Made by a program: the position numbers and the translations under genes
DNA from: an archaeon
Lineage (GTDB): Archaea; Undinarchaeota; Undinarchaeia; Undinarchaeales; JBDRKL01
NCBI GenBank assembly: GCA_043814055.1
Contig: JBDRKL010000004.1
Coordinates: 1-64,000, forward strand
DNA: 64,000 nucleotides
Reading direction: 5' to 3'
The notes under the pieces: model-generated
Seen by the model: the letters and a program-made list of their open reading frames with translations, nothing else
The model's database searches: none
Told to the model about the DNA's origin: nothing
Shown: positions 42,644 through 43,318 of the stretch, one piece after another
Numbering within the stretch: the first letter of the stretch is position 1
How the letters are laid out: the number at the start of each line of letters is the position of its first letter

Positions 42644-43318
42644 ATGGACTTAAACGACCCTCGAGTAAATAAGTACGAAGAATTTAACAAGACTTATCCA
42701 GCAAATATGTCTGCCCTGCTGAATGCGGGCGGGGTGCCGATGAGCATTTCCGATATTATGGAGCGAAGAGTGGAAGTGCTGGAGAAGTTCAAGGGCCATG
42801 AAGTCGTTGACAATTGGTGGGATAATTATTTTTATTCCTGCACCGGCGTTGCGCAGTTCGGCGACAGGATAAAAGTGGTTGAGCGGCCGAAGCTTCTGCT
42901 TGAGATTGGCAAGCACGTCAAAAGCATCAAAAACGGGGCATTGCAGCTGCCGAAGGATGCGTGGGGCAAGCTTGGCGGCGAGGGATTCTCTTATAATGAA
43001 TTGAAAAATGTCCTGAACAAACCTTTATCTGCATCCAAAGTATTGAAGCACCCGATTTGGAACGCGGTTGCCGGCAAAGAATTTTTGGAAAAGTATATTA
43101 AAGTGATGGGTAAGAAGTATCGGTTTAAAGAATTCATGGGCGTTTATTTGGACGACCCTAAAGAATCACAAAACAATCCAACTTTGCGGGCTTTTGTGCT
43201 CGGCAGGGGCGGCGACAGGTGGTCCGACCTCTACGGCTTCGGGGGCAGCAGGGGCCTTGGCGACTACGGCGCCCGTCTTGTTGGGGTACTTGCCGAAGCA
43301 AAGCCTCCCAAGTCATAG
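42644..43318 (+). CDS. DGR target (variable) protein with C-terminal VR, probably CLec-like fold
   Basis: 3' end aligns to the TR with adenine-specific mismatches; ends ..GARLVGVL.. Confidence 0.9.
   Translation: MDLNDPRVNKYEEFNKTYPANMSALLNAGGVPMSISDIMERRVEVLEKFKGHEVVDNWWDNYFYSCTGVAQFGDRIKVVERPKLLLEIGKHVKSIKNGALQLPKDAWGKLGGEGFSYNELKNVLNKPLSASKVLKHPIWNAVAGKEFLEKYIKVMGKKYRFKEFMGVYLDDPKESQNNPTLRAFVLGRGGDRWSDLYGFGGSRGLGDYGARLVGVLAEAKPPKS
43183..43305 (+). repeat. DGR variable repeat (VR) including the IMH-like 3' end
   Basis: 15 core mismatches vs TR, all opposite TR adenines; one 9-nt insertion. Confidence 0.95.

Follow-up and report, generated by a model that had tools for sequence, protein, structure and literature searches.

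Diversity-generating retroelements (DGRs) whose template repeat (TR) and variable repeat (VR) differ in length have been on record since 2018. In that year a survey by Wu et al. (NAR 46:11, PMC5758913), in the portion of its text available, counted such differences in 25 of 372 DGRs, 14 of them being multiples of 3. The same portion places 74% of these indels next to an AAC, reads them as slippage of the reverse transcriptase (RT) and proposes length changes as an added mutagenic capability; the slippage model is restated in the discussion of a 2026 paper (PMC12875486). In the literature on DGR indels and on template jumping or switching by bRT-Avd, we found no duplicated unit with separately mutagenised copies.

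Three further systems bear on the locus described here. The first is the Nanoarchaeota variable protein AvpA (Handa et al. 2016, PMC5006420, PDB 5IOO), whose strand beta-5, carrying the motif RFxGV, is encoded by the invariant IMH according to the accessible sections of that report. The second is the DGR of Bordetella phage BPP-1 (Guo et al. 2011, PMC3240598), where 5' cDNA integration has been documented at cryptic sites and at least 8 bp of identity is reported to suffice for 5' integration. The third is the set of RNA motifs RT-1 to RT-19 (Weinberg et al. 2017, PMC5737381), which the available sections of their description present solely as motifs near RT genes, with no role assigned; RT-10 is linked there to the BPP-1 DGR, with the speculation that further RT motifs serve DGRs.

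The window analysed here is the whole stretch of 64,000 nt, bases 1–64000 of contig C4 in a 14-contig, 979,685-base assembly (G000) that is 82% complete, about 18% of the marker genes being absent from it. The window contains a DGR cassette of the archaeal AvpA type, in which a target gene with the VR at its 3' end is followed by an RT-16 RNA and then by the TR (Table 1). We regard the cassette as genuine because it has a full-length RT-16 RNA and a target protein with an AvpA-like fold, and because two cassettes in another genome (G386, contigs C89 and C11) have the same order. Its VR is longer than its TR, and in this respect it is a clean new instance of a published phenomenon, of which both the occurrence and the slippage reading have been known since 2018.

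Table 1. Features of the DGR cassette (positions in the window)
Feature	Position	Strand	Basis
Target gene, AvpA-like C-type-lectin-fold DGR variable protein	42644..43318	+	ORF
Variable repeat (VR), 123 nt, at the 3' end of the target gene	43183..43305	+	repeat alignment
Copy 1 of the duplicated unit, GGCTTCGGG	43235..43243	+	sequence reading
Copy 2 of the duplicated unit, GGCAGCAGG	43244..43252	+	sequence reading
Invariant G+C-rich 3' part of the VR, IMH-like	43271..43290	+	identical to TR 43570-43589
RT-16 RNA motif (Rfam RF03019)	43319..43495	+	covariance-model match
Non-coding template repeat (TR) of 114 nt with 33 adenines, rich in AAC in the VR frame	43491..43604	+	
Single TR unit GGCAACAGG, present as two copies in the VR	43543..43551	+	
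TR codon AAC, putative landing site for the nascent GGC end in the back-jump model	43552..43554	+	

The cassette occupies a module of 1138 nt (42581–43718) between the genes for Rpp30 (41918–42580) and Pop5 (43719–44069), which belong to an archaeal RNase P/proteasome/SBDS/exosome gene cluster. At 12 of 12 loci from 11 genomes of the order, Rpp30 and Pop5 are spaced by 0–258 nt and the AvpA-like gene is absent; the twelfth genome of the order (G010) gave no Pop5 match. The target protein was likewise not found in 16 other genomes of the phylum or, with a single-protein query, in 60 relatives. Since the module is missing from all 12 loci and the protein from the phylum genomes searched, the target/RT-16/TR module is an insertion specific to the lineage of the window.

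Other repeats in the window lie outside the cassette. The two copies of a 48-nt repeat (44990–45037 and 48438–48485, 88% identical) stop at the ATG of SBDS and at that of Pcc1, respectively, and may be a common leader or promoter cassette. The direct repeat D1 (59334/59454), considered as a second TR/VR pair, proved to be an internal repeat of one small basic protein and was rejected. This protein of 118 residues (59219–59575, minus strand) has no Pfam match. Within it a 40-residue unit (RC.I.RESGYLYF.DK.GN.AR..MAR) occurs twice, and KTSTARR-like repeats form its tail, which accounts for both D1 and D3.

The target protein (P0001) comprises 224 residues from the ATG at 42644, or 227 if translation begins at the possible upstream TTG at 42635, and the VR spans residues 184–224 of the longer form. 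It has no Pfam or NCBIfam match, and our initial homologous-protein search recovered the protein itself only. Likewise, a tblastn search against phage records gave no match, and scans for related loci recovered nothing, either in genome contigs (queried with P0001 and with P0004, its closest relative) or in viral contigs (queried with P0004). The VR/TR frame pattern had 0 matches in viral contigs, and the one viral-contig match to an 18-nt TR word was dismissed as a chance hit in a context that is not TR-like. Among 1.84 billion representative proteins, 281 relatives were recovered at E<=1e-3.

An AlphaFold2 model of the target protein, built with an alignment of 40 relatives, has a pLDDT of 92.9 and a pTM of 0.90. 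The sole strong match of this model in the PDB by Foldseek is AvpA (5ioo_A; E 2.2e-10, TM 0.68/0.74, 225 columns), whereas the family profile gave no match to PDB chains by sequence. The motifs agree in part: HPIWNAVAG is a partial fit to the HPxxxPFxG of AvpA, and RLVGV corresponds to its RFxGV. The segment of the VR shared with the TR at its 3' side (43271–43290) encodes ARLVGV, the strand beta-5. The two proteins thus share their fold and the placement of the VR ahead of an IMH-encoded beta-5, and both come from small uncultured archaea, as far as the accessible account of AvpA goes; they differ in that the sequences are only 19% identical and that 13 residues separate L215 of RLVGV from the stop in the window protein, as against a tail of 46 residues in AvpA. 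The 9-nt insertion described below maps to a loop of lowered confidence (pLDDT 77, residues 201–210), and in the model it would lengthen this loop by three residues just before strand beta-5 of the lectin fold.

The RT-16 RNA matches all 158 positions of its model (1–158 of 158) with 82.8 bits against a gathering score of 50 (E 1.6e-13). It begins right after the stop codon of the target gene, overlaps the first 5 nt of the TR and is the only copy in the genome. At the gathering score the motif was found in 1 of 151 related genomes, namely the window's own, and at 2 of 17 other loci (L022 and L031); in the two G386 cassettes it again lies 5' of the TR (L031 5194–5330 and L022 1595–1742, both on the minus strand). 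The match is thus full-length and above the gathering score. It differs from the available published description, which places the motif only near RT genes, in lying between a DGR target gene and its TR both here and in G386, and the window copy has no RT beside it. Two candidate signals, a promoter box ATAAAATAC (~43413) and a terminator formed by an 8-bp hairpin (43390–43409, z -4.8), fall within the RT-16 match and were dropped.

The VR and TR have a 20-nt stretch in common (VR 43271–43290, TR 43570–43589), after which the VR continues with TGCC (43291–43294) and the TR with GAAA. This layout of an identical stretch followed by a repeat-specific block would, from its sequence, fit an IMH/IMH* arrangement. 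Downstream of the VR there is only a 4-bp stem (z -0.21) and no convincing hairpin; an 8-bp hairpin follows the VR of one metagenomic relative (L008; see below). In comparison with the BPP-1 DGR, the window cassette has the same adenine-specific transfer from TR to VR, an invariant G+C-rich 3' end of the VR and a structured RNA adjoining the TR. It differs in the position of that RNA, which is 5' of the TR here and 3' in BPP-1, where the spacer corresponds to the RT-10 motif in the available part of its description (PMC5737381). It further differs in having no Avd and no convincing hairpin just past the VR, and in the dominance of A>G among its changes (13/18), whereas the BPP-1 RT misincorporates dATP most (Handa et al. 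2020, PMC7826257). The A>G skew in the VR could stem from selection for glycine or from a different enzyme bias.

The enzymes expected to serve such a cassette were not recovered from the genome of the window. In this assembly, 82% complete, profile PF00078 gave 0 RT matches, 4 archaeal RTs used as tblastn queries reached a best E of 0.17, and the Avd profile (PF05635) likewise had 0 matches; an RT may still lie elsewhere in the genome. Not every DGR has an Avd. In cis the cassette is RT-less, and Pop5 begins 115 nt past the TR, where related cassettes have their RT. A search of 401 archaeal genomes found the protein family in 6, one of which is the genome of the window. An RT gene stands beside the family protein in two of them (G236 C8 and G246 C6); in G386, RTs are present on the separate contigs C89 and C11, each with its own TR/VR pair, in the order VR, RT-16, TR, RT. 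The RT match on G386 C11 (L031 ~4276–4695) holds an in-frame TAA, and RT decay may occur in this relative also. The only RT found in the window's own order (G011 C179, L003 1789–1866) lies beside a group II intron match (RF00029) and was set aside as a DGR lead.

The difference in length between VR and TR is exactly 9 nt, and the direct repeats that they form are two ungapped blocks with offsets 9 nt apart (repeat families D5 and D7). The sequence-only reading had claimed an in-frame duplication of 9 nt within the VR, with each copy departing from the TR unit solely at adenines and in different ways. Direct reading and alignment bear this out: the TR has the unit GGCAACAGG once, and the VR has GGCTTCGGG followed by GGCAGCAGG, both in the frame of the ORF 42635/42644–43318. 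The first copy encodes Gly-Phe-Gly (residues 201–203) and is altered at 3/3 adenine sites of the unit, and the second encodes Gly-Ser-Arg (residues 204–206) and is altered at 1/3. Both retain the six non-A bases of the unit, every change being at its three adenines, and the copies mismatch each other at exactly these three sites, an arrangement with a chance of 1/84 by position alone. The probability that a random 9-mer matches the unit at its six non-A positions is ~1.5e-4 given the composition of the window, or 1.8e-3 given that of the VR.

The gap can be placed equally well at 13 positions (after TR 43542 to 43554). Read as a duplication, the junction may fall after VR 43243, 43244, 43245 or 43246, a range that covers the registers GGCAACAGG and AACAGGAAC, and the earlier remark that a second register works equally well is correct. 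With the gap set after TR 43542, TR and VR differ at 19 positions, of which 18 are TR adenines (hypergeometric P 4e-11 for 33 A in a 114-nt TR): 13 A>G, 3 A>T and 2 A>C. The sole mismatch at a non-A base, G>T at TR 43590, lies in the 3' tail within a 4-nt block that also holds three A changes; 80 of the 81 non-A positions of the TR equal the VR, including every one outside this tail. In the terms of the indel criterion of Wu et al. 2018, the VR has +9 nt, its unit GGCAACAGG holds one AAC, and AAC flanks the unit on both sides. Together, these observations confirm that the extra 9 nt in the VR are real and well above chance.

The direction of the change was assessed from related sequences. A metagenome scan with the closest relative, 44% identical to the target, gave seven loci with five distinct genes. 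None of their VRs (L006, L008, L010, L011 and L012; 5/5) has the 9-nt insert. The DNA of these VRs is in the frame of the TR (TCC NNC CTC NNC GGC NNC NGG NNC CTY ...), and four have the length of the TR; the fifth (L008 7429–7535, the same as L009) is shorter by 3 nt, or one codon, in the equivalent loop. The gene bodies of L008 and L012 are just 79% identical and could not be taken as alleles written from one TR; therefore the shorter VR of L008 is not ascribable to a DGR. All five genes have NNC-rich, VR-like 3' ends, and they occur in differing contexts, one being next to an MCM gene that adjoins a LAGLIDADG ORF and another next to an rRNA operon. There is no TR near the L008 VR in its 10.9-kb contig, and no TR or RT near any of the five homologues in the fetched DNA, which covers ~6 kb upstream and 3.4–8 kb downstream for L006 and L008 and only 1.2–2.4 kb for L010, L011 and L012; donors for these VRs, if any, would lie beyond the fetched stretches.

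Loop length points the same way. We aligned 150 family proteins, 112 of which have both anchor residues corresponding to S197 and L215. The spacing between these is 14 in 61/112, 13 in 18/112 and neither of the two in 33/112; the TR encodes 14 and the VR 17. Moreover, the TR of G386 C11 and its two VRs have one unit at the duplication site. A relative with two units in its TR, like a longer TR elsewhere in the genome, had been named in the sequence-only reading as evidence against a duplication in the VR, and neither was encountered: with TR and VR as blastn queries, the 14 contigs (979,685 bases) yielded only the two repeats themselves, the next best matches having E 0.12–0.33 over at most 46 nt. 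The relatives, the loop length and the lack of a second TR in these contigs together favour a gain in the VR over a loss from the TR.

The same reading had looked to homologous VR/TR pairs for indels of 3n nt. The four other pairs in family-bearing genomes (G236 C8, G386 C89 and G386 C11 with its two VRs) are all ungapped over 82–86 nt, from which it follows that such length events are not frequent. A third VR-like copy in G386 (C10; L030 3090–3270) is 12 nt longer than the C11 TR; its differences extend to non-adenine sites as well, which makes it a probable old paralogue rather than a current target.

These comparisons weigh on the possibility that the change lies in the TR, in which case an ancestral TR with two tandem units would have written the VR and later lost one unit by replication slippage, with no homing since. 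A perfect tandem 9-mer is prone to deletion, a later change in the TR would not be copied to the VR if the RT is missing, as it is from the assembly, and the separately mutagenised copies would need no special behaviour of the RT. However, family members most often have the one-unit length, which is also that of the five related VRs and of the related G386 TR, so that this course requires a gain and then a loss in the TR; furthermore, the non-coding TR has no other sign of decay, matching the VR at nearly all its non-A positions. We consider such a deletion unlikely.

We think it similarly unlikely that the VR was last written from another donor, a TR longer by 9 nt in an unassembled RT locus, in a mobile element or in a donor genome before transfer, with the local TR being a paralogue. 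In favour of it, the RT and about 18% of the marker genes are missing from the assembly, the module is an insertion specific to the window genome, and the five metagenome homologues likewise have no TR in their fetched stretches (for L006 and L008, ~3.4 to 8 kb from the gene), their donors being elsewhere. Against this, the assembled bases hold no second TR-like sequence and a single RT-16 copy, and the local TR matches the VR at all non-A positions outside the 3' tail.

Our main reading, to which we give a probability of roughly 0.55, is that the extra 9 nt are a derived in-frame insertion in the VR that arose through a template switch mis-registered by 9 nt during retrohoming. We infer the switch and its landing site from the observed sequence pattern, the gain in the VR, the parts of the cassette and the fold of the target. 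Because the copies differ at exactly three adenine sites and the mutagenised span has no change at a non-A base, the duplication would date to a mutagenic copying step; and because the TR has no 9-nt periodicity, a jump is suggested rather than slippage on a tandem repeat. The 9-nt shift in copying register would have occurred during synthesis or installation of the adenine-mutagenised TR cDNA. Precedents for such an event are the TR/VR length differences surveyed by Wu et al. 2018 and the cryptic-site 5' integration of BPP-1.

Such a shift could have taken either of two routes. In the first, the RT would copy from the 3' end of the TR as far as the GGC at 43543–43545, whereupon the nascent end would realign 9 nt back on the AAC codon listed in Table 1, with one true base pair and with mispairs at two template adenines, and the RT would then copy AGG-AAC-GGC again with fresh adenine errors. 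The configuration at this landing would be that of an ordinary AAC-to-GGC product, of which the VR has three at single-copy sites (TR 43510–12, 43519–21 and 43567–69), plus that at TR 43552–54 in either register. In the second route, a cDNA ending at the GGC would switch onto the old VR at a GGC that was formerly AAC, thereby joining a new and an old mutagenised copy. Either route would leave separate adenine substitutions in each copy.

Of the two processes put forward in the sequence-only reading, re-copying by the RT and out-of-register integration, neither can be singled out: the gain in the VR on which both depend has the support of the relatives and of loop length, and the routes predict an identical product, so that they cannot be told apart from sequence alone. 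By analogy with BPP-1, the second route may be disfavoured, there being 3 nt of identity here against at least 8 bp there. A preprint (10.1101/2025.08.18.670894) puts forward, as an unconfirmed proposal, binding of the cDNA to the lagging-strand template. Were both ends of the cDNA to anneal in register, the length change would already be present in the cDNA, which would favour the back-jump on the RNA. Several points count against a mis-registered switch as such, namely a TR lacking 9-nt periodicity, a landing with just one true base pair, an assembly with neither RT nor Avd, the ungapped state of the four other TR/VR pairs, and a single allele from a single assembly.

Compared with the DGRs in the accessible part of the survey by Wu et al. 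2018, the window case differs in three ways: the 9-nt unit is not repeated in the TR, indicating a jump as opposed to slippage on tandem AAC; both copies bear separate adenine changes, which would date the event to the mutagenic step; and the assembly has no RT.

Two explanations that do without any switch fare worse than those already weighed. It is very unlikely that the duplication is an artefact, in which a hypervariable VR from a mixed population was assembled as a chimera of two alleles or was altered in amplification. The assembly is one of 14 contigs from an uncultured organism, and VRs are polymorphic in populations and troublesome to assemblers; however, the registers share at most 3–5 identical bases at the junction, far under any assembly k-mer, and by this reasoning the junction must exist in reads, while the frame is kept and the protein model is confident. 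Least probable of all is an ordinary DNA duplication, produced in the VR by replication slippage once the last homing was over and then altered by three point mutations, since, common as short tandem duplications are and persistent as one would be without an RT, all three inter-copy differences fall on the three adenine sites (again 1/84 by position) and the mutagenised span has no non-A difference between VR and TR.

A broader version of the mis-registered switch, which we hold to be doubtful, would extend it to the AvpA/RT-16 lineage of DGRs as a whole. Here the invariant GGC codons of the TR would mimic the commonest mutagenised form of AAC, so that the nascent end could anneal anew to an AAC further downstream and the RT could copy whole codons twice, varying loop length along with sequence in the manner of junctional diversity in antibody CDR3. 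Such copying might then have left its footprint in the varied loop lengths of family proteins (the 33/112 with neither common spacing), and RT-less target/RT-16/TR modules might be served in trans by an RT elsewhere. The claim in the sequence-only reading that the DGR would diversify loop length is, as it stood, overstated, for it draws on one event in an assembly in which no RT was found; the idea itself is in the available text of Wu et al. 2018 (PMC5758913).

Through the separate adenine changes in its two copies, this natural example ties the duplication to the mutagenic step and not to later DNA replication. If DGR RTs do make register errors of whole codons, the sequence space that they explore would exceed the count obtained from A-to-N changes; if this is true, engineered DGR mutagenesis could vary loop length too. 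Two features of the locus may prove more useful than the duplication itself: the placement of an RT-16 RNA between target gene and TR in archaeal AvpA-type cassettes, and the insertion of an RT-less cassette copy in the conserved archaeal RNase P/proteasome/exosome cluster.
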